Positions 11,977 through 24,800 of a stretch of DNA of 64,000 bases are shown here, in pieces. A model generated the notes under the pieces. The model made no database searches. It was given only the letters and a program-made list of their open reading frames with translations, and was not told the DNA's origin. The position numbers and the translations under genes were made by a program. Each line of letters opens with the position of its first letter. Position 1 is the first letter of the stretch. Origin of the DNA: Protoeuglena noctilucae (lineage: Eukaryota); contig OY253673.1 in the NCBI GenBank assembly GCA_958009085.1, positions 682,001-746,000 of the forward strand, written 5' to 3'.

Positions 11977-14900
11977 ATGTCCTGCGTGCAGCACGCGCCG
12001 CTCTCTGGGCGCGGGGCCCTCCTCCGCCGCGCCCTGGCGGGGAGCTGTTCGGCCCCCGGGGTCGGTAGCGGGCTGCCTTTCAATAACCTCGTCGCTTGGG
12101 GGCGTGGCGACGTCGACGCGCCGGGTGAGGAACCGCGGCGAGAGGCACGTGCGTTGGGCGCACAATCCCAGCCCAGCCGCGCGAGGGACGACCAGCGCAG
12201 CTCGAGCGTGTGGTGTCGAATGCGCGCTATGATATGACGTCGCTTGCTGCCGCCGCGGGGGTTTGTCGCGTCCGTCCCGGCGAGCATCGCCTCAAGGACG
12301 CATCGCGCGGACGGGCCGCTTGCGCCCGCCCTCCCGCGCACGAGCGTCGCGACGAGGCCGCGTCCCGCGTCCACTCGACGCAGGCTATATCGGCCGATGC
12401 GCCGTGCTGGGAATGGCGCCCCTTTCCCTCGCCCGCCGCGCGGCGGGGCGCGCCCACGCGTCCCCGTCACAAGTGACCACGGAGGCGCGGGTGCCGCCCC
12501 GCCTGTCGGGCCAGGACATCCGCCGCAAGTTCCTGCAATTCTTCGAGTCGCGCGGGCACCTGCGCCTGCCCTCTTCCTCGCTCGTCCCGGAGGACCCGAC
12601 GGTGCTGCTGACCATCGCGGGGATGCTCCAGTTCAAGCCGGTGTTCCTCGGCCAGCGCCCGCGGCCGGCCCCGCGCGTGACGACCACGCAGAAGTGCGTC
12701 CGCACCAACGACATCGAGAACGTGGGCGTCACCGCGCGCCACCACACGTTCTTCGAGATGCTCGGCAACTTCTCATTTGGCGACTATTTCAAGGAGGAAG
12801 CCATCGCCATGGCCTGGGAACTCTCCACCAAGGAATTCCTCATCAGCCCTGAGCGCATCTGGGTGTCAGGTGGGAGGGGCTTTTAGCGCCCGGCAGGACA
12901 GCGTAGAGGGGGCATGGGATGCCGGCACCACTCAGCGGCAAGCCCGGCGCCCACGCAGTGTACGAGAAGGACGACGAGTCCCTGGCCATCTGGAGGGACA
13001 AGATCGGCGTGCCCGCTGAGCGTATCAAGGCAAGTTGCTGTGCCTACCAACGTTGCCCAGCCACTGCTGTGCTTCGTCACTCCACCCCCCGCCCGTTTCC
13101 GCAAACCTCGCCCCACTTCCCTATCGCAGCGCATGGGTGAGAAGGACAACTTCTGGGCGTCGGGGCCCACCGGTCCCTGCGGCCCCTGCTCTGAGCTTTA
13201 CTACGATTTCCACCCCGAGCGTGGCGCGGAGGGGGCCTCTCTTGAGGACGACTCCCGGTTCATCGAGTTCTACAACCTCGGTGAGAGATTCCGATTCCGA
13301 TTCCGATACCGATTCTGCTTGGTTGTTCTTATACAGTCGTGCCCAGAGTTGTCACCCGCGGCCCCCACCCGCCCGCACAGTGTTCATGGAGTTCAATCGC
13401 GACGCGGAGGGTCGCGTGGCTCCCCTGGAGAAGAAGAACATCGACACGGGGATGGGATTGGAGCGGATGGCGCAGATCCTGCAGCGGGTGCCGAACAACT
13501 ACGAGACGGACCTGGTGCGGCCGCTGATGGACGAGGCCGCGCGGCTGGCCGGCACGGACTACGACGCCGCGGACGACCGGCAGCGCCTGGCGCTGAAGGT
13601 AATCGCCGACCACACGCGTGCCGTCACATACCTCGTGTCGGACGGGGTCACGCCCTCGAACGTCGGGAGGGGCTACGTGGTCCGCCGCCTCCTCCGCCGC
13701 GTCGTGATGAAGGGCCGGCTGCTGGGCATCCCGCACCCGTTCCTCCCTGCCGTCTCCCGGGTCTCCATCAGCCTGTCGGGGGACTGCGACCCAGACGTCG
13801 CCCGCAACGCCGACCGCGTCCTCGCCGAGCTCGAGAGGGAGGAGATGGCCTTCGTGGTGAGCAACGGAACTCCAACCATGACCTGGCTATACCTTGCCCC
13901 TCTTGTCTTGTCTCATCATCTGCTATCTGGGGAGCAGGGCTAGCATCTCTCCATATGACACCCGACCACGGCTACCATAGCTCAACACCTTGTTACCCAG
14001 GCGACGCTGAAGAAGGGCGAGAAGATCCTGTCGGACGTTCTCGACAAGGCGGTGACCGCTAATTCGCCCGTCTCGGGCCCTGACGCCTTCCTGCTCTACG
14101 ACACGTTCGGGGTGCCCCTCGAGTGCACGGTCGAGTGGGCAGCCGAGCGCGGGGTGGGCGTGGACGTGGCGGGCTTTGACGCGGAGATGGAGCGGCAGAA
14201 GCGGCAGTCGCAGGCAGCCAGGGAGGACGTCGACCTGACGGCAGACGCGGTGCTGGGAGAGGTGCGGGCGGAGGCGGGACCCACACAGTTTTGCGGGTAC
14301 GAGGACCTGCAGCTGTCGGGCGCACGCGTGGTGGCGCTGCTGCGCGAGGGCGCGCGTGTGGAGCGCGTGGGGGCCGGGGAGGAGGCCCAGCTGGTGCTGG
14401 ACCGCACGCCTTTCTATGCGGAGTCGGGTGGCCAAGTGGGCGACCGGGGTCGGTTGCGGGTGGAGGGCGGGGGCGCGGAGGTGGAGGTGGTCGACGTTCA
14501 GAAGGCCGCGGGGGGCGAGCTGTTCGTGCACAGCGTGCGGGTGGCCGAGGGGAGCGTGCAGGTGCGGAGGAGCGGTGGGGCGACACTCGTGTGCATGAAT
14601 TCTGGCAGAGTAGCATGGGTGTCGGCTCTACTATCGTCATGTGACTTGTTTTCGCAGGTCGGGGACAGGCTGGCGGGCGCGGTGGACGAGGTGTCCCGGG
14701 GTCGCATCCGCGCGAACCACACGGCGACCCACCTGCTCCAGAGCGCACTGAAGGCGGTGCTCGGCCCAGACACGTGCCAGCAGGGGTCGCTCGTGACGGC
14801 CGAGCGCCTGCGTTTCGATTTCAACTCCCCCAAGGGTGAGCAGGGCGCGTGCGGCGCTGCCCTCGTAACCTCGCCTTGGGCTGGCGCGGCGCCTCACCTG

Positions 14901-16067
14901 ACCCGCACCTCGTCCGGTGTGCCGCAGCCATGACTCAGGAGCAGCTGCGGGAGGTGGAGGACCTGGTCAACACCTGGGTGGGCCAGGCGCATGCTCTGGA
15001 GGTGGAGGAGATGCCCATTGCGGAGGCCAAGGCCAAGGGAGCCATCGCCATGTTTGGCGAGAGGTGCGTGGCGCGCCAGATGCGCGAGAGGGCGCACCGC
15101 TAAGGCTGAGGAGTGAGTGAATGCGAGGGTGAGCGAGTGAGCGACTGCGGCTGGCCCTTGCAGGTATGCGGACGTCGTGAGGGTTGTAGATGTGCCGGGG
15201 GTGTCGATGGAGCTGTGCGGCGGCACGCACGTGGGCAATACGTCGGAGATCCGCGGGTTCAAGATCCTGTCCGAGGCCGGCATCGCGTCGGGCATCCGTC
15301 GGATCGAGGCCGTGGTGAGTGCTTCATGCAGGGGTCATAGAGCGCCAGGGACGGTACCGTACCCGGCCACTGCGCTGCGGAGACTCGCCGAGGGCCTTTG
15401 GGGATCGAAGAGAGCGGATCCCGGGAACTATTTGAGGAACTGCGCGCATTAGCGAGGACTTTCGTGCACTTTCCCGCTGCAGACGGGCGACGGGATGATC
15501 GCGCACCTCAACACCGTGGACGGCATCGTGCGGGCGCTCGCGGGCGGCCTCAAAGTGAAGCCGGAGGAGCTCGAGGGGCGCGTTCGCGCCATGCAGGACG
15601 AGCTGCGCGCGGCCGCCAAGGAGGTGGCGGACCTCAAGTCGCAGCTGGCCCTGGCGAAGGCCCAGGCATTGCTGGGGCAGGCGGAGGCCGCGGGCTCTTT
15701 CCGCCTCCTCGTGGCGCGCTTGGACGGAGTCGACGCCAAGGGCCTGCAGGACGCCGCGCTCGGGCTGCAGCAGAAGCTCGGGGAGGCAGGGGCCGTGGTG
15801 CTGGGTTCCGCGTCGGAGGACGGGAAGGTGTCGCTGGCTGCGGCGTTTGGGAAGGAGGCGGTGGCCAAGGGGGCCAACGCGGGCAAGTTCATTGGCGGCG
15901 TGGCCCGGGCGTGCGGCGGAGGGGGCGGGGGCAAGCCAAACGTGGCGCAGGCGGGGGCTAAGGACGCGTCGAAGCTTGATGAGGCCCTCAGCCAGGGGAA
16001 GGCCGAGCTCACGGGCACCATCATCGGGAAAACCGCGAGTCTGGCGTCAGTAGGATCATCCCCGTGA
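11977..16067 (+). CDS. alaS: Alanyl-tRNA synthetase, organellar (plastid/mitochondrial) type; the last ~15 codons come from a transposon end
   Basis: [114 protein letters not shown]. The start at 11977 (transit-peptide-like exon) is tentative. Confidence 0.95.
13287..13315 (+). repeat. (GATTCC)n hexamer microsatellite at the 5' end of an AlaRS intron
   Basis: gattccgattccgattccgataccgattc immediately after the GTGAGA donor. Confidence 0.85.
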
Positions 16068-16135
16068 TACCCAGGAATCGTGGGGATCATCCCGCTGATC
16101 CCGGGGTATCAGAGGGATCATCCCAGTGATCCCAC
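16016..16135. repeat. Left TIR and subterminal GGGATCA/GATCCC array
   Basis: ggatcatccccgtgatacccaggaatcgtggggatcatcccgctgatcccggggtatcagagggatcatcccagtgatccc. Confidence 0.85.
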
Positions 16136-17443
16136 TGACGACACAGACTGTAATGTAAACCCTCATTGAGCCCAGTGATTCCAGCCGCGCGCCCGATCTC
16201 CCTGGGGAGGCCGTTTTACGCGGCGCGGTTACGGCCACGGCGCACCCGGGATGCGAGAGGCCGCTGGGAGCAGTTTCGCGGCATTTCGTCGTGGTCGGGG
16301 ATCGCGGGGAGCGGGGCCCACTCGGGAGCGCAGCGGCGCCGGAAGCGTTAGCCGAGGCTATCCCGCCGCCTATCTTCCTTCTCGGCCGCGATCAGACCTA
16401 TCTTGATCGCGATCGGACGCATCTTTTGGGCACGCGCGCTCCGGGGCCCGCGCGGCCCGGGGGGCTCCGTTCGGCCCGTAATCGCTCCCTAGCGTAGCTA
16501 TTGGTATTTCAATCCCTACGCCGAGGTTACATGACCATCCGTGACGCTCTAGGCAACGCACTCATGCACGCACATGCAGCCGGACTCGGGCGGCCGCAGG
16601 CGCGACGGGAGCGCGCAGCGACCACCGCCAGAGGCACCGACCGCTTGTTCCGGACGCTGCCGCTCCATCGGGGAGCGGCGCTCCGGCACTCGGGCCAGGC
16701 ACTCGGGAGATGGTGGCGTGCGCGACTCCGCCGTGCCGACGGCCGCCCCAGGAGTCGATGACCACCGCTGCGGGGCGCCGCGGACGCCAGACGACAGACA
16801 AGGGGCATGGGTCGGCGGACGAGCCATGGCGGGCCCGGCCAGCACCCGACCAGCGCCGGAACTTGGGACGAGGTGGCACGTGCGCCTGCGTGCTTGTTAG
16901 GCGAAGTTAGAGTCAGTCTCGGGGTGAGAGAGTGCAGGCACGGTGCCAGGTACAGTAAGCAAGTACAGAGATACCACGCTGGCGGACCAGCCCTTCGTCC
17001 CTCCCAGCCAACCAACCCCCCCTTGCACACCTGACCGTGTCGCAGACCCCACCGGTAGCGCAGCAGACCAACCGCGCACCTCGGGGACAGCGACAATGTC
17101 CGACCTGATCTAGTCATGCGTATGCTGCATCTCACCTCACGGGAGCTGGCCCCTCCCCTCCCCAGCCACGTCAGCACACCTCGCAGATGGCTCAGCAGCA
17201 GGCTGCACTCTCACCCTAGAGAGGGACGATGATCCAGCGCTGTTCGCACCAGCAGCGCCGAGCCTCGCCTGTGCGCGGTGCTGTCGCTGCAGCCCTGCAA
17301 TCCACCCCCGCTTGCCTGGAGGACTGACGACCCCTGAGCCTGCCTGACCCACAGAGCGCGCGCTGGACTTTCCTCACCTCCGCTTCCACGCCCTCACCAT
17401 GCCCGCCTTGAACCCTGCATCGCAACCTGCGCTGCAGCTCACC

Positions 17444-20400
17444 ATGCTCGAATGCGACGCGTGTGGAACGCAATTCGATACCCCGGCCAAGCTCGCCCGG
17501 CATCAGCAAAGATGCCCTGCGCTGTGGGGCTGGAGATATGGCGAGGAGAGCCGCCAGGAAGCACCCCGCCCCGCCGCCCCACACGAACACTATGTCTCTC
17601 CGTCTCTGCGAGGCTCGGACGGGCTGGCACGCGACAGCGCCAGCGCGGGACCAGACCAAGAACTGCGGGAGGAAGACGGGACGGCGGACGTTGCTGCGGG
17701 CAGTGATGGCGAGAGCGAAGATGTAGGACTCGCGTGGCTCCACTACGCCGACACGGACGTGGACATGGACGTGGACATTGACTCGGAGAGGGGTGAACCG
17801 CCCGAGAGCGCCGGAGCGCATGATGCGCCCCAAGAGGACGCTCCTGGAGTCTCCTACCTTCCTGCGCCCGGGGAGTACGAACCGCTGAAGCTGCCGGAGG
17901 ACCTGGAGGCATGGCGGGCCAGGAGCAGGGACAGTGACGATGAGTACCTGAGCCAACTTGAAGCAGGGGCGCAGTTCATGGCATCGCTGACGGCAGCGCA
18001 TTTCGATTGCTTCGTGAAGCTGCGCCCCGACATCCGCGACGACCTTCTCGACCTCGGGCGCTCCCACCGCACGTTCCACACCTCACTCAACAGCATCCAT
18101 GGCCAGTACGAGGTGCGTCACGCCGCGGTGCCGCTTGTGTCGAGGGCCTCGGACGCGGCCGAGGGGGCTGACGCCAACCAGTGCACGCACGGCCTGCAGG
18201 TTTTGCAAGAGGAGGGCAGCACAACCATCATCTACCAAACGATAACGGTGCTGAGGGACATGCTGGTGCACGCGGAGCAGATCAAGCCCAAGACGCTCGT
18301 TAAGTTGATGCGAGACTTCAGCGAGGCACGGGAACGGTCACGCCAGGCGCGGGCGAGACCACATGAGACGCATCCCAGCATCCACGAGAAGCTCACCTTC
18401 TCCCGGGCGAAGGGGTATAGCGACATAGCCGAGGCTGTCGCTGGCAAAGTCCGCCCCGAGCTGCACGCCCGGCTGCTCCTCGTGCCCGTCGCGTACAGCA
18501 TCGACGGGGTGGAGATGACCAAGGGCGCATCGACGACGCCCATCCACATGCACCTCCTGTCGCCTTGCAAGGCCGTGAGGACAGGGACGCCGCGAACCGT
18601 GGCCACCGTCGAGTCCATGAAGGCGAGAGGAGGATTGCCGGCGTTGCAGCCCACACGTCCACCACCACGCCGCGTGTATGAGTTGTCGCTCGAGGCCCCC
18701 GCAGGTGTCCGGGATCACTCCGGGGTCACAGGCAGACCTGAACAACAGAGAGGCCATCCAGCGGCGGCTGGCTGCCGTGGACCGGCAGCTGATTGGCGTG
18801 GCGAGGTCCGGTGGGGTGTGGATGACCCTCCCCGACGTCGGGAGAGTCATCGTCTTTCCCGTCTTGGCGGCGCAGCTGAACGACATGATGGCCAACTCGT
18901 CCACGCTGGCCGTCAGGTCGTGCCCGCTGTGCCTCCAGGATGACTGCCGCACGCCTCGCACCGTCGCGCTGCATCGCCTCCAGGTGCAGCACATCCTGCG
19001 CTTGAGGAGGGACGTGGGGACGGCCAGGGCCAACGAACAAGCCAGGGAGAGCAAAATTCATCCTGTGGTTCCTGCCCTGTCGTACTGGGACGAGTTCGGG
19101 TCGGACTTGTATCAGGGCCAAGCACCTGACCCCATGCACACCGTGGAACTGGGAATGTTGGGCAAGACTGTTCCCTTCTGCATACTGACCGTCCTCTACA
19201 ACAACGCGGCAGCGGGAGAGTCTGCGACAAAGGCAAACGCCCTCTTGGCTGCGTTCGCATCGATCATTGCGGATGCCAAGGTGAGCTGCAGGTCAGGCAA
19301 TGGCGTGCGTTGCCTGCAGTGGCGCCGCAGCTGCTCGGTATTCACCTGGCATGTCCATCGTCGTGTGGGTGGAGCGCAGGCCCCGGCATGGATCCACGCC
19401 CGTCCGTGGGGCGAGACCTTCCAAATCGTGCTGAGCCTCGTGGACCCGTTTGGGAAGATAAAGGCGTACGAGGCGAGGTTCTTGATCCAAGCTCTGCCTT
19501 TCGCCCTCGTCGAGCTCTTCTCTCGAGGCGAGGCCGACAGTCAGCGCTGCGAGGGCATCGGGAGGAGCTGCGGGTATCGCGATGCGGGCCGGGGAACCCC
19601 GGGAGTGTTTCCCCACCACCACATCCCTTGCAGAGCCTACGGGCAGCAAAGACGTGCACGACGAGAGGGTTGGGCTCGTGGCCGTAGCCCTGGCATGCCT
19701 TCAGCTCTATGCCGAATGGTCCCTGGAGAGCGCCACCATCGCAGGGGCGCAGGCGGCGGACGCGCAGCTGAATAAGGTCCTCCACGTGAGGCCTTCTCCA
19801 ACACCAGCCCCATCGTTCGCTGCCCCTTACTCACTCTGGAAGCCTTGTCGCTGCCGTGTCGCCGCAGGTCGTGCTCAAGACGCTGCTGCGTGGCCACGAA
19901 ATCGTCCGCACGGAGAAGCCCCTCTTCAGCAAGATCGAGAACAGCCAGAAGTGCCACGCGCTTTCGCATTTCCCTGCAGTGGTGGCGAGGAACGGCTCCA
20001 TCATGTTGGGCAGCATGAACGACGCCGAGCGCATGCACAAGCCCATTGCCAACGCGCGCACGAACGGCAAGGGCGACGTGCAGGTACAGGCAAGAAGCGC
20101 CGCCCAGCGTAGGCGACGCGGGGAAGCCCACGCAGGACGCGTTTCTTGCGACTCACACGTCTCGATGCGGTCGCACGGCGCTCGACCCGCGTGCCATGCT
20201 GAGCCGCGCTGGACTGACCCCCGAGCCCTGTCGCAGGCGAGCACCCGCGTCATCTCTCAGAGGGCGGCCTCCGTCATCAAGAGCCGGGCGAGGGCGGAGC
20301 AGCCGGTCCCGTCCCAGCCCGAGGACCAAGTGAAGGGCGTGAAGACCGTCCTGAAGAAGAACGACCTGTGCAGCGAGGGACGCGCGGAAGACTTCGTTTC

Positions 20401-20902
20401 TAAGGCGGACCTCCTGAACGCCCTCAAGGGCGCGGGGCTTCCCTGCCACGTCTTGGGCGAGGTCGCGCTGACCTCCACGGTCGAGATCGGGACGGCCAGC
20501 GGGGACCGGGCCAGGATCGTCGCCACCGACGAGACCCTGTCCTTCGTCGAGTACCTCCCGGACAGGGGCACGCTGCAGACGGGCAGGGTCGTGTGCGGGG
20601 TTGAGGCGAAGACCAGCTCCGGTGCCGGGACCTTCCTCTGCGCCCTGGTGGCCCCGGTGCACAGGGCCCCATGCGACCTGAGGTACCTGTCCAACCAGTG
20701 CTTGTCGTTCTACACCAACCTGGGAGCGCTGCAGCCTCCCCAGCTGTCGCTCCTGGAGCCTGCGGAGGGCGAGGCTCTGAAGTGCGTGCCCCTCCGCAAC
20801 CTTCGGCGGCAGCTTCACGCCGTGAAAGTTGCTGGGAAGCTTCTTCACTGCGGCCACGTGCAGCAGGTCTGGGAGCACCACGCCAGCGGCGGCGAGGAGT
20901 AG
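17444..20902 (+). CDS. Plavaka-like DDE transposase with N-terminal C2H2-like zinc finger; ~7 exons, ~950 aa
   Basis: Predicted exons 17444-18112, 18200-18622, 18705-19280, 19380-19527, 19634-19785, 19868-20083 and 20237-20902 join in frame. Motifs: CDACGTQFDTPAKLARHQQRC; VAYSIDG (D1); LNDMMAN..CPLC (D2 plus CxxC); PDPMHTVELG; KCHALSHF..RNGS..DAERMHK (E); beta-rich C-terminal domain. This pattern resembles Plavaka/CMC transposases. Confidence 0.78.
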
Positions 20903-21445
20903 GTGACCCCAGGAGCTCCCCGATGCTCGCGGTGCCAGGTCCCCGACGCCGGCGATGTCATCTGTATCGAGATAATTCTCCGAAGCCAGCCCCGCGCCCC
21001 CATCCGCAGCGCCATGACGGCGGGGACGGCTCACCTCCCATGCAGCAGCCACCTCCGTGCGGCGTAGCCGGCAAAGGCGCCGCAGCTAGCGAGATTTAGG
21101 TCACCTCAATCCATAGGCCAAGCGCTGCGTGCCCGATCGCGGCCGCGGCGGCGGTAGGCCTGGTCGAGCACGGGGACCTCCCCGGCGCCCCCGGGGGCCC
21201 GGCGAGCCCGCGAGCTCCCGCTCATCGCATAGATATGGACATCTCACGTTGAACAGCGGCGGCGCAGGGGAAGCGGACCCCGGATGCGTCGACGGCCCCC
21301 GTCTGCATGCTGGAGCAAGCTTTAGGACGCGAGAGGGGCCTCCGAGGCAGTCATTAGCACCAACTAGCAAATGTGCGGTCTCTCCGCCTCCTCTCGAGCC
21401 CCCTGAGCAAACGCGGGGGCGCGCACGCGCGTCAGGGCCGCGGCC

Positions 21446-21605
21446 CGGGATCGCTGGGATCACTGCGGCAGTGGCGGGGATCGCCGGGATCACGGGGATG
21501 ATCCCGGCGATTCCCGGGGATCACTGGGATGAATCCAGTGATTCCCGCGATCCTTCTGATCCGAGTGACGTCAAATCGCCGGGTTTTCCCGATGACACTG
21601 CAGTG
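21446..21605. repeat. Right subterminal GGGATC array and TIR
   Basis: About 8 GGGATC/GGGATG/GATTCC units followed by ggttttcccgatgacactgcagtg. Confidence 0.85.
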
Positions 21606-21813
21606 ACGGAATGCCTCAGACACGGCCAGGACTTGCAGTGACAGAAAACTTGGGGCCATAACTAGTTCTTTTCAACCTTTGATCCTGGCAAGAGATAGTC
21701 AGCAAAGGAAAGCGTAGAGATCGCTTGGTGTTCTTGGGATCCATCACGCGTGCGGTGACCTCACGGACATCATGGGGCTTAGCGGATCTCAATAGTGGAA
21801 TTGTGAACAGTAG

Positions 21814-24800
21814 ATGGCGCTGAAAGCCATTCTGGGAGGAGCCCGGTCCGCGGCCACTGGGCTGCGCGGCCCGGCAGGTGCGGTGCGCGCGTCGGCTCAG
21901 GCCAGGTGCTGCCGCGAAGCAGGCAATGACGATTGGCTTGCATCGCCGATGCCAGCAGGCCAATCGATCTCGGTTACGGGAGCTGCGCTTCTGTCGCGGC
22001 GCTTTGCCGATGAGGCCGAGCCGTCGGGGCAGGAGGCGGACCTCCCCCCCTACATGGGCCCTTATGAGCGCGATCTGCACGTTCAAATCGCCCACAAGCG
22101 TGGGATGGACATTATCGGAGATCCGATTTTCAACCGGTGAGTCTCAGACGTGGCAGAGCGAACGGGGAGCTCGCACGCGTTCACAAGAGTTGCATTGGCC
22201 AACGGACCTTGCCTCTCCCTGCCCTGGTGCTTAGGCTGCCCGTCGTGCCTCCGCGGCATCTACTTTGCATGCCTCTCTCCTCCTGGCACCGCTGTGACGC
22301 ATGTCCGCGACACCGCCGCGCCGCGGCAGGCCATCACACATCGATCACTGACTTCAGCCTGCGCGGCCGTCTGCCGCAGGGGTACGGGCTTCAAGGAGCA
22401 CCATCGAGAGCGTTTGGGACTGAGGGGCCTGTTGCCGCCTTGCGAGACGACGCTCGAGACGCAGATGGCGCGCCTCATGAACGTCTTTCGCAACGGCATC
22501 TCCACGCCCCCTCCGCCCGAGCCCATCACCGAGCAGCACATCCAGCAGTGGCTGTTACTTAGGTGACTGCCAAGAGCGAGAGTCGCCCGCTTCCCCGCGT
22601 GGCCCGATTCGCTGCCAGCTACCCCAGCGATCGCATCGTTTGCTGATCGATGCGCCCCGCCACTGCCCGACGTCGCCCGCTGCTCTTGCAGGGACCTCCA
22701 CGACCGCAACGAGACGCTCTACTACGCCCTGCTCGTCAAGCACTTTAAGGAGCTGGCGCCGATCGTGTACACGCCCACGGTCGGGTGGGCCGCGCTGAAC
22801 TACTCGGTCATCCATCGGCGCCCCCGCGGCTTCTACTTCTCCCAGAAGGACAGGGCCCACTTCTCCTCCATGCTCTGGAACTCCCCGCGGATGGAGGTCG
22901 ACGCCATCGTCGTCACGGACGGGTGCGTGGGGTGCACGGGCGTGGGGTGCTCCGTCTTGGCTAGACTAGCCTCGCTCTTCGACGTGCCAGGCTGCCCTCG
23001 TCGCGCGCAGGTCCCGCATCCTCGGCCTGGGTGACCTGGGCATTCAGGGCATGGCCATCCCCATTGGGAAGCTCGACTTGTACGTGGCGGCGGCGGGCTT
23101 CCACCCAGACAGGGTCTTCCCTTGCATTGTGGTGAGTGCATGCCATGGTGGGTGTGGTGGATGGCATTGCAGTGAGGGCATGGCGTGGTGGGTGTGTTCG
23201 CCTGAGCCTGCCTGGCGTGTGTTGCGATGCAGGACGTGGGGACGGACAACGTGGACCTGCGCAACTCCACCGAGTACATCGGGCTCCGGCAGCCGCGCAC
23301 CAAGGGGAAGGAGTACTTTGAGATCATGGACGAGTTTGTGTCGGCGGTCATGGCGCGGTGGCCCAACGCGGTGCTGCAGTTCGAGGACTTCAACACCAAG
23401 GCGAGGAGAACGCAAGCGGGGTAGATGCACGGGGTGGTGGGGCTGGCGTGAACGCTCACAAGTGATGCAGATGCGGGTGCCTGGTGCCAGCACCACACCG
23501 CACCACACGTCACTGCACACCCTCACTCGTTGCTTGACTAGCCCGTGTCTGCAGGTGGCCCGCACGCTGCTGGAGCGGTACCGCAACCACCACATCGTCT
23601 TCAACGACGACATCCAGGTGCGGAGATGCAAGCGAGCAAGCAAGCACGTAGACAGCTGTGCAGCATGGCTGTCTCTTGTTTCATGCACGCGCCAGCAGCA
23701 GCGCACCATAACACGCTGTGCTCTCTTGCCCAACTGACGAGCCCAGCATGGCACAGCTCAGCTCACGACAGCTCAGCCGCAGCAACCCGCGACGCCAACA
23801 AGCAGTGCGAATCGTGTCGTGTGCGCAGGGGACGGCGGCGACGGCGTTGGCGGGGATGTACGGGGCCATGCGGGTGCTGGGGAGGCCCAAGCGCGCCATC
23901 ACCGAACAGACCTTCGGTGAGGCCTGGAGCGGTCGCGATGCTGTACTGCAAAGCCCTTCTGGATTGCTCGGGCGTTCATGTGTTTAGCTTTGTACTGCGG
24001 AGCCATTTTATGCTACACTAGGTCTTGATGATGACTTCATGCGTCTTCTCGCTCTCTCTCACCCGCAGTGGTGTGCGGTGCAGGGTCGGCGGGCATGGGG
24101 GTGGTGGAGATGATCGCGAAGGGCTTAGAGCGGCACGGCCTGCCACTCCTGCAGGCCCGCAGGCGCTTCTGGCGAGTGCCCCTGCAACGCGCATGATGCG
24201 ATCATTGCAATTCCTGCGACGTGCCCACCACATGCGCTCGGCCTCTTACTTTGAGCATGACCATCCGCTCACCGCCCTTTCGATTAACCAGCTATCAACA
24301 GCCCTTGTTTGTGATCGACGCATCGCCTTTCCTGCACCCCTGTCCCCAGGATCTTCGACCAGGACGGCCTGGTGACGACGCGCCGGCACGGGCTCGACCC
24401 CTTCGTGATGCAATTCGCGAGGCCCGAGGAGGACATGGACGGCATGAAACTCCTGGACGTCATCAACCGGGGTGCGTGCTGCTGATGGGACGGCCAGTGT
24501 GACCATTGTCCATGGCTGTGGATGTGCGCATTGCCTTGCAACACGTCGCGTCGGCGGTGGCGACGGATGCGACTGCGGAGGGTGTACAGAGCCCCGTCCG
24601 CTGCGCCTTGATAATTTATCATCCCCGTCGCCCGCAGTCAAGCCGACGGTGCTGTTGGGCCTGACGGGCGCGGGCAAGATCTGGAGCCGGGACGTGCTCC
24701 GTGCCATGGGCGAGCACAACGCCCGGCCCATCATTTTCCCCATGTCCAACCCCACCAGCAAAATGGAGTGCACGGCCAAGGAGGCACAAGAAGCCACGGG

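Follow-up and report, generated by a model that had tools for sequence, protein, structure and literature searches.

A multi-copy DNA transposon at the 3′ end of an organelle-type alanyl-tRNA synthetase gene of Protoeuglena noctilucae, and the probable origin of the protein's present C-terminus

We analysed 64,000 nucleotides of Protoeuglena noctilucae DNA (assembly GCA_958009085.1, contig OY253673.1, forward-strand positions 682,001 to 746,000; hereafter the window, in which all positions are counted from its first letter) and found that an alanyl-tRNA synthetase (AlaRS) gene of the organelle type is interrupted close to its stop codon by a transposon. Our account, which taken as a whole we regard as probably correct, is that a 5,576-bp element of the Plavaka/EnSpm group lies in the last codons of the gene and that the dinucleotide AC was duplicated. 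An autonomous-looking cut-and-paste element of the EnSpm/CACTA-Plavaka group would have inserted, in gene orientation, into a Thr codon two codons before the AlaRS stop. The protein would previously have ended ...A-E-L-T-G-T-L-Q-stop. Insertion with duplication of AC would have rebuilt the Thr codon (ACA to ACC), replaced Leu-Gln by 15 residues read from the left end of the element (Ile-Ile-Gly-Lys...Ser-Ser-Pro, with a stop at 16065-16067) and left the old CTG CAG TGA unused at 21598-21606. An initial annotation had proposed that the transposon rewrote the C-terminus and that the original end survives beyond its right end. Both parts stood, but the surviving end is most likely only Leu-Gln-stop, in another frame from the one proposed.

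The AlaRS gene and the inserted element

The features on which this account is built are as follows.

12503-16067, + strand: AlaRS gene of cyanobacterial (organelle) type, as far as homology supports it and ending with the present stop (tblastn of P0001, database matches, RNA joints)
15483-16018, + strand: portion of the last AlaRS exon that is native, through the second base of the Thr codon (acceptor, DHHA1, not shared with other element copies)
16019-21594, + strand: DNA transposon, Plavaka/EnSpm-like (CMCT group), ends 5′-CATCATCGGG...CCCGATG-3′, 5,576 bp (depth, loose ends, X13 contig, Atlas neighbours)
16019-16140, no strand: left inverted-repeat core (16021-16034) and subterminal GGGATCA-type repeats (repeat, motif, end alignment)
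21447-21594, no strand: right subterminal repeats and inverted-repeat core (21582-21594) (repeat, end alignment)

The window is high-GC DNA (0.62-0.71 per 2-kb step) with short GT..AG introns. By tblastn, residues 19-885 of a cyanobacterial-type AlaRS of 890 amino acids (P0001) aligned onto 12503-16010, and AlaRS proteins were the best 120 of 235 database matches to the window gene. Like bacterial and organellar AlaRS, the gene has a C-Ala (DHHA1) domain, and its identity to cyanobacterial AlaRS is 42-60%. PF01411, PF07973 and PF02272 belong to one protein here: DHHA1 was matched directly in the last exon (Pfam, hmmscan, E 3.9e-13), the Pfam scan covering that exon, and PF01411 and PF07973 were placed through the alignment of P0001 over the upstream exons, all three domains being precomputed for P0001. 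A spliced RNA contig carried the GT..AG joints 14557>14654, 14834>14927, 15061>15162 and 15313>15482. The last exon, 15483-16067 on the + strand, follows an acceptor cag that ends at 15482, and its frame is open from 15453 to the TGA at 16065-16067. Thus the AlaRS frame does run into the left end of the transposon and stop there, as first annotated. The gene is transcribed and correctly spliced with the insertion in place.

The stretch 13500-23400 was present wholly or partly in 18 of 24 listed public runs, 13 of which contain at least half of its sampled words. Contigs of four runs were compared with the window: a metatranscriptome (X9), a marine metagenome (X14), a run from a separate study labelled organism A (X3) and one labelled organism B (X13). 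On either side of the insertion, X3 contigs that start in unique flank sequence extend into the element, by 22 bases to 16040 on the left and by 27 bases to 21568 on the right, and no joint across 16019-21594 occurred in any of the four runs. Because the flank contigs enter the element from both sides and nothing joins across it, the insertion is real and is present in an independent data set. That it is nevertheless absent from the living genome here, through an assembly join via a repeat, or is spliced from the mRNA, with AlaRS keeping its native end, we consider highly improbable. Assemblies do err at high-copy repeats, and contigs drop rare variants, such that a minor spliced or empty form could escape; but the X3 flank contigs come from another study, an RNA contig spans 15968-17379 across the left element junction, the 13 runs contain the stretch in good part, and the first bases of the element, CATCAT, give no GT donor at the junction. 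Splicing out to a different last exon, the outcome that the initial annotation had set against itself, did not appear in the contigs of the four runs, which may miss minor forms.

The element is a real transposon of a multi-copy, young and apparently active family. Its summed word depth in X3 was about 2,300, against 150 and 107 in the flanks, and across runs it was joined to foreign flanks, at least four others on the left and at least five others on the right. Along 16020-21594, a 5,647-nt contig from X13 departs from the window at 2 of 5,575 bases, and an X3 DNA contig joins 17215>20475, skipping 3,259 bases, which represents an internally deleted and probably non-autonomous family copy. 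Depth, foreign flanks, the deleted copy and the near-identical copy all characterize a mobile, multi-copy element.

At its ends, the element carries a perfect 14-nt inverted sequence, TCATCGGGAAAACC, at 16021-16034 (+) and 21582-21595 (−); its two matches compare with 0.27 expected, and 2 of 100 shuffles reached two. Subterminal arrays of GGGATCA-type repeats lie inside both ends, with 58-nt arms that are 81% complementary, and an alignment of the two ends has a mean column identity of 77%. The motif GGGATCATCCC, with at most one mismatch, matched 9 times against 1.69 expected, a number that none of 100 shuffles reached. A pattern for both element ends had no match in viral or metagenome contig collections.

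Some observations concern the family at large. X13, labelled as the other organism, and X14 carry the element at near identity with almost none of the AlaRS flanks, which may mean that another strain or species has this family, or that it spread recently; the missing cover over the AlaRS flanks in these two runs is no evidence for an empty site. In X3, loose ends at 17377-17379 and a depth over 16107-17310 below that further in suggest copies with a different left part. At 19424 and 20246 the window has A and C, where all four runs have G and A; one of these changes is silent (CAA/CAG), and the other exchanges Arg and Ser in the third open reading frame (ORF). These differences from the family consensus are private either to this copy or to the assembly.

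Probable element boundaries and original C-terminus

The following features describe the junctions and the DNA beyond the right end.

16017-16018, no strand: AC, proposed target-site duplication of 2 bp, left copy (repeated at 21595-21596; only model restoring the family C-terminal length)
21595-21596, no strand: right copy of the proposed AC duplication (three near-identical copies diverge right after 21594)
21597-21606, + strand: orphaned original AlaRS end, most likely the third base of the Thr codon, then CTG CAG TGA (Leu-Gln-stop, 21598-21606) (tail length, penultimate Leu, P0001)
21607-21641, + strand: tail supposed by the initial annotation (frame ACG GAA TGC...TGA), most likely original 3′ untranslated region (3′UTR) (tail length, rare codons)

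Other copies of the element diverge from the window on the left at 16016 (X3), 16018 (X3 and X14) and 16020 (X3, two contigs), and on the right after 21594 (X9, X13 and X14), 21595 (X3) and 21597 (X3). Three copies, one of them near-identical inside the element, differ from the window from 21595 on, and ACACTGCAGTG (21595-21605) is therefore probably host DNA, as is GGCAC (16014-16018); neither is likely to belong to a terminal inverted repeat (TIR). The initial annotation had counted 16014-16018 and 21595-21605 to the element and its TIR; the other copies stop matching at 16016-16020 and 21594-21597.

Short repeats arise easily at such junctions: 25 different boundary models, each only a few bases from the ends, come with a perfect repeat of 2-5 nt. 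If the right end is put at 21594, AC is the sole perfect flanking repeat; this sets the left end at 16019 and gives the ends 5′-CATCA...GATG-3′. From this best model, an element at 16019-21594 flanked by AC, we infer both the exact ends and the duplication. It is preferred because protein-level evidence tips the balance. Removing 16019-21596 joins ...ACG GGC AC to A CTG CAG TGA and yields ...A-E-L-T-G-T-L-Q-stop, with the stop at 21604-21606.

To compare this end with those of other AlaRS proteins, tails were measured to the C-terminus, starting at the final GGGG in the conserved glycine motif. The count took in 131 word-index homologues (45 of 176 were dropped because the motif was missing or the sequence cut, and the window ORF P0121 was excluded) and 106 cluster representatives (43 of 149 dropped for the same reasons). 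A tail of 35 residues was the mode in both sets (103/131 and 43/106). Among the 146 homologues of that length, the penultimate residue was L, I, F or V in all 146, and seven end in L-Q. Of the 25 perfect-repeat models, only 16019-21594 with AC gives a 35-residue tail, and it places Leu at the penultimate position; the reconstructed end thus has the family's modal length and its hydrophobic penultimate residue. In P0001, exactly five residues remain past the position aligned to 16010 (tblastn), the length of T-G-T-L-Q, and CTG and CAG are the preferred codons of the AlaRS gene (40 of 82 Leu and 29 of 33 Gln). Judged by these protein comparisons, the surviving original end is most likely Leu-Gln-stop at 21598-21606, and 21607-21641 is most likely the old 3′UTR.

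The initial annotation placed the element at 16014/16015-21605, with ACG(G) as the target-site duplication and ...E-L-T-E-C-L-R-H-G-Q-D-L-Q-stop as the original end. Its arithmetic was right, in that cutting at the ACGG repeat (16011-16014 and 21606-21609) does yield ...ELTECLRHGQDLQ-stop at 21639-21641, and a 4-nt repeat does flank these boundaries. The right end would then start with CACTG, like classical CACTA elements, whose ends are CACTA/CACTG beside a 3-bp duplication, and one other copy (the X3 loose end at 21597) reads CACTG beside the shared core. However, three copies diverge right after 21594 and so do not share CACTGCAGTG, the reverse strand of 21596-21605, and the left end has no matching CACTG. 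On the left, none of the other copies has 16014-16015 in common with the window, and the model needs the transposon to encode the G-T of ...L-T-G-T, which is to the left of every divergence point. The 41-residue tail that results has a counterpart in 1 of 237 homologues (0/131 and 1/106), and ECLRHGQDLQ uses three codons that are rare in the gene (GAA for 3 of 57 Glu, AGA for 3 of 65 Arg, TTG for 5 of 82 Leu). We therefore give ACGG as the duplication, and the tail read from it, hardly any credence; AC is the most likely duplication.

A closer competitor, though still an unlikely one, shifts both ends by a single base, to an element at 16018-21595 (5′-CCATCA...GATGA-3′) with CA duplicated. The original end would then be ...E-L-T-G-T-A-V-T-E-C-L-R-H-G-Q-D-L-Q-stop (21639-21641), five residues longer than the tail just discussed. 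CA stands on both sides in the window and also in two X3 loose ends, which may or may not come from one copy, and A at 21595 recurs in three of six right junctions; yet base 21595 of the window is not shared by the three copies named above, among them the one that has just 2 differences across 5,575 bases. A tail of 46 residues, as this model demands, occurs in none of the 237 homologues. Of the 14 extra codons in that tail, 4 have A or T in third position, compared with 13.9% for the gene (GAA, AGA and TTG again being rare), and it would have to be coincidence that the other frame places a Leu and a stop exactly where the family has its terminal positions.

Transposase-like frames and family assignment

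17348-20902, + strand: three transposase-like open frames that overlap or abut, 17348-18943, 18621-19775 and 19790-20902 (ORFs, codon-position GC, Atlas neighbours)

The GC content of the transposase-like ORFs by codon position (0.64-0.72, 0.49-0.54 and 0.73-0.85) follows the same order as in the AlaRS exons. In the ESM Atlas, residues 190-440 of ORF1 neighbour a PF18759 (Plavaka) cluster with a score of 0.91, and residues 40-260 of ORF2 neighbour PF18759 clusters with a score of 0.94 and, by predicted structure, a TM of 0.62. The motifs SIDG, LNDMMA, CPLC, H-x5-H and DPMHTVE can be read by eye in this order. The layout of EnSpm, Plavaka and Transib transposases is given as D, D, C(2)C, H..H, E in PMC12730594; in the window element CPLC supplies C(2)C, so that the order D...D...C(2)C...H...H...E can be followed by eye in a large transposase. 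The same paper describes PlavakaB ends as 5′-CATCA..TGATG-3′ with duplications of 2 or 3 bp, and the wider group as 5′-CA..TG-3′. As in PlavakaB and EnSpm elements (CMCT; fungi and red algae), the window element has short inverted ends, on the preferred boundaries CATCA...TG, a proposed 2-bp flanking repeat and subterminal repeats.

There are also differences. The left end of the window element has three extra bases relative to the right, and its histidines, in motifs read by eye, appear as H-x5-H where the spacing of the group is H(3-4)H. Its host is a high-GC marine alga-like genome rather than a fungus or red alga. Plavaka in algae has been published for red algae (bioRxiv 10.1101/2025.02.11.637652). 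Of the accessory genes of red-algal Plavaka elements, or of TET/JBP genes, the 5.6-kb window element gave no sign, no in-depth search having been made. ORF1 had no match in a phage collection (tblastn), and the sole Pfam match of the element ORFs was a weak zf-C2H2 (E 0.088).

No single gene model joining the three + strand ORFs was adopted, the admissible candidate GT..AG intron pairs being far too numerous to choose among. A transposase gene on the minus strand was rejected for want of a convincing protein: after removal of five introns seen in RNA, its frames are rich in Arg, Pro and Gly, the longest having 372 amino acids.

Several observations weigh against our account, beginning with the family assignment. 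The three + strand ORFs matched neither PF18759 nor PF02992 by hmmscan with E up to 10, and ORF2 had no relative in a word-index protein search at E 0.001. That the element works like Plavaka/EnSpm is thus a lead, drawn from language-model and predicted-structure neighbours and from motifs read by eye. The published right end of PlavakaB, TGATG in PMC12730594, compares with CGATG in the window (21590-21594), a match of 4 in 5 in which CA..TG is kept. At the junctions, C at 16018 is common to all five left junctions (the window and four loose ends) and better fits an element start at 16018. The three unpaired left ends all have C, whereas the second flank base of the four unpaired right ends is G, T, T and T, a pattern that sits somewhat uneasily with a duplication of 2 bp. 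Chance alone would produce a repeat of that length once in 16, and among the runs compared there was no copy with both flanks. On the host side, no close AlaRS orthologue was found, the nearest relative being 65% identical to the window AlaRS. The check for an empty allele proposed by the initial annotation found none in the contigs of the four runs, nor any match in a search of metagenome contigs with 28 nt of the right flank; the insertion did turn up in the independent run X3. Lastly, the RNA contigs give neither strand, 3′ end nor level, and within the element they show the family letters at 19424 and 20246, not those of this copy.

The present C-terminus, transcription and consequences

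16020-16067, + strand: transposon-coded AlaRS tail, 15 codons (I-I-G-K...S-S-P) and new stop TGA at 16065-16067 (frame, codon use)
21814-22140, + strand: start (first exon) of the next gene, expressed and spliced (ORF from ATG 21814; RNA joints 21873>21955, 22135>22379 and 22560>22690)

On the preferred placement of the element at 16019-21594, the Thr codon at 16017-16019 is a hybrid of host and element. The net change to AlaRS is small, Leu-Gln being exchanged for Ile-Ile and 13 more residues at a variable end of the protein. Compared with its homologues, the present allele is 13 residues longer net (48 against 35 from GGGG), and natural tails of 36-43 residues occur in 42 of the 106 cluster representatives. 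Because natural homologues have such ends, an extension at the AlaRS C-terminus is plausibly harmless. The conserved hydrophobic penultimate position that was lost appears to be refilled by a transposon-coded Ile, a residue found there in 18 of the 146 length-35 homologues. With the change confined to the variable end and a hydrophobic residue kept at the conserved penultimate position, we infer that the enzyme would remain functional. Why the chimeric end looks native at first sight can be seen from P0176, a short eukaryote-like AlaRS fragment whose end, ...L-A-E-I-I-K, resembles the transposon-coded ...T-G-T-I-I-G-K by chance.

According to the initial annotation, the insertion is tolerated because the TIR continues the reading frame and soon provides a stop. 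This argument has little force, since every insert will bring in a stop at some point. There are better reasons in the site itself, which on the reconstructed gene end would lie two codons before the natural stop, at an end of variable length, and in the Ile that would refill the conserved penultimate position.

The RNA contig that bridges the left junction makes it plausible that the AlaRS 3′UTR is now transposon-derived. TGTAA is a poly(A) signal in green algae, and TGTAATGTAA at 16149-16158, about 85 nt past the new AlaRS stop, is the sole + strand pair of TGTAA (copies at 16149 and 16154) in 15901-22000. As the motif is not enriched in the window (7 and 14 occurrences, against about 17 expected per strand), we draw no claim from this pair as a poly(A) signal.

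Further in, RNA contigs from X9 carry five minus-strand GT..AG joints (18194-18396, 19222-19345, 19547-19834, 20366-20472 and 20573-20719; depths 25-158). These look like spliced antisense transcription of the transposon. On the + strand, a GT..AG joint in RNA at 20903-21009 comes right behind the third ORF, whose stop is at 20900-20902; a sense transcript may have a 3′UTR intron there, or the true frame may differ. Beyond the element, the next gene begins about 208 nt past the original AlaRS stop, and the right end of the element lies 220 nt upstream of its ATG. The element's right end may affect the promoter of that gene.

It is ordinary and well known for a transposon to provide a gene with a new C-terminus and stop; transposable-element exonization and chimeric C-termini have been described, for example, in maize Ds/dSpm alleles. 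As in those cases, the host frame runs into the element end and uses a stop inside it, and the gene is still expressed. The AlaRS insertion differs in lying two codons before the natural stop, with almost nothing lost and no splicing of the element seen.

We think it rather improbable that the element gains more from its position, namely read-through transcription of its transposase from the AlaRS promoter, with gene ends acting as a 'safe harbour' in which the family can become fixed. If this were true, what would matter is the sense position in an essential, constantly expressed gene, together with an element end, CATCATC (Thr-Ile-Ile), that refills the lost conserved position.

For the organism, the account would correct the model of an essential organellar tRNA synthetase gene, which would now have a transposon-coded end of 15 residues and its natural stop 5.6 kb downstream. 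For the family, it documents a young, apparently active Plavaka/EnSpm-like lineage in a high-GC marine alga-like genome. Insertions at the extreme 3′ end of genes such as this one would show how much change an essential gene can bear without loss.

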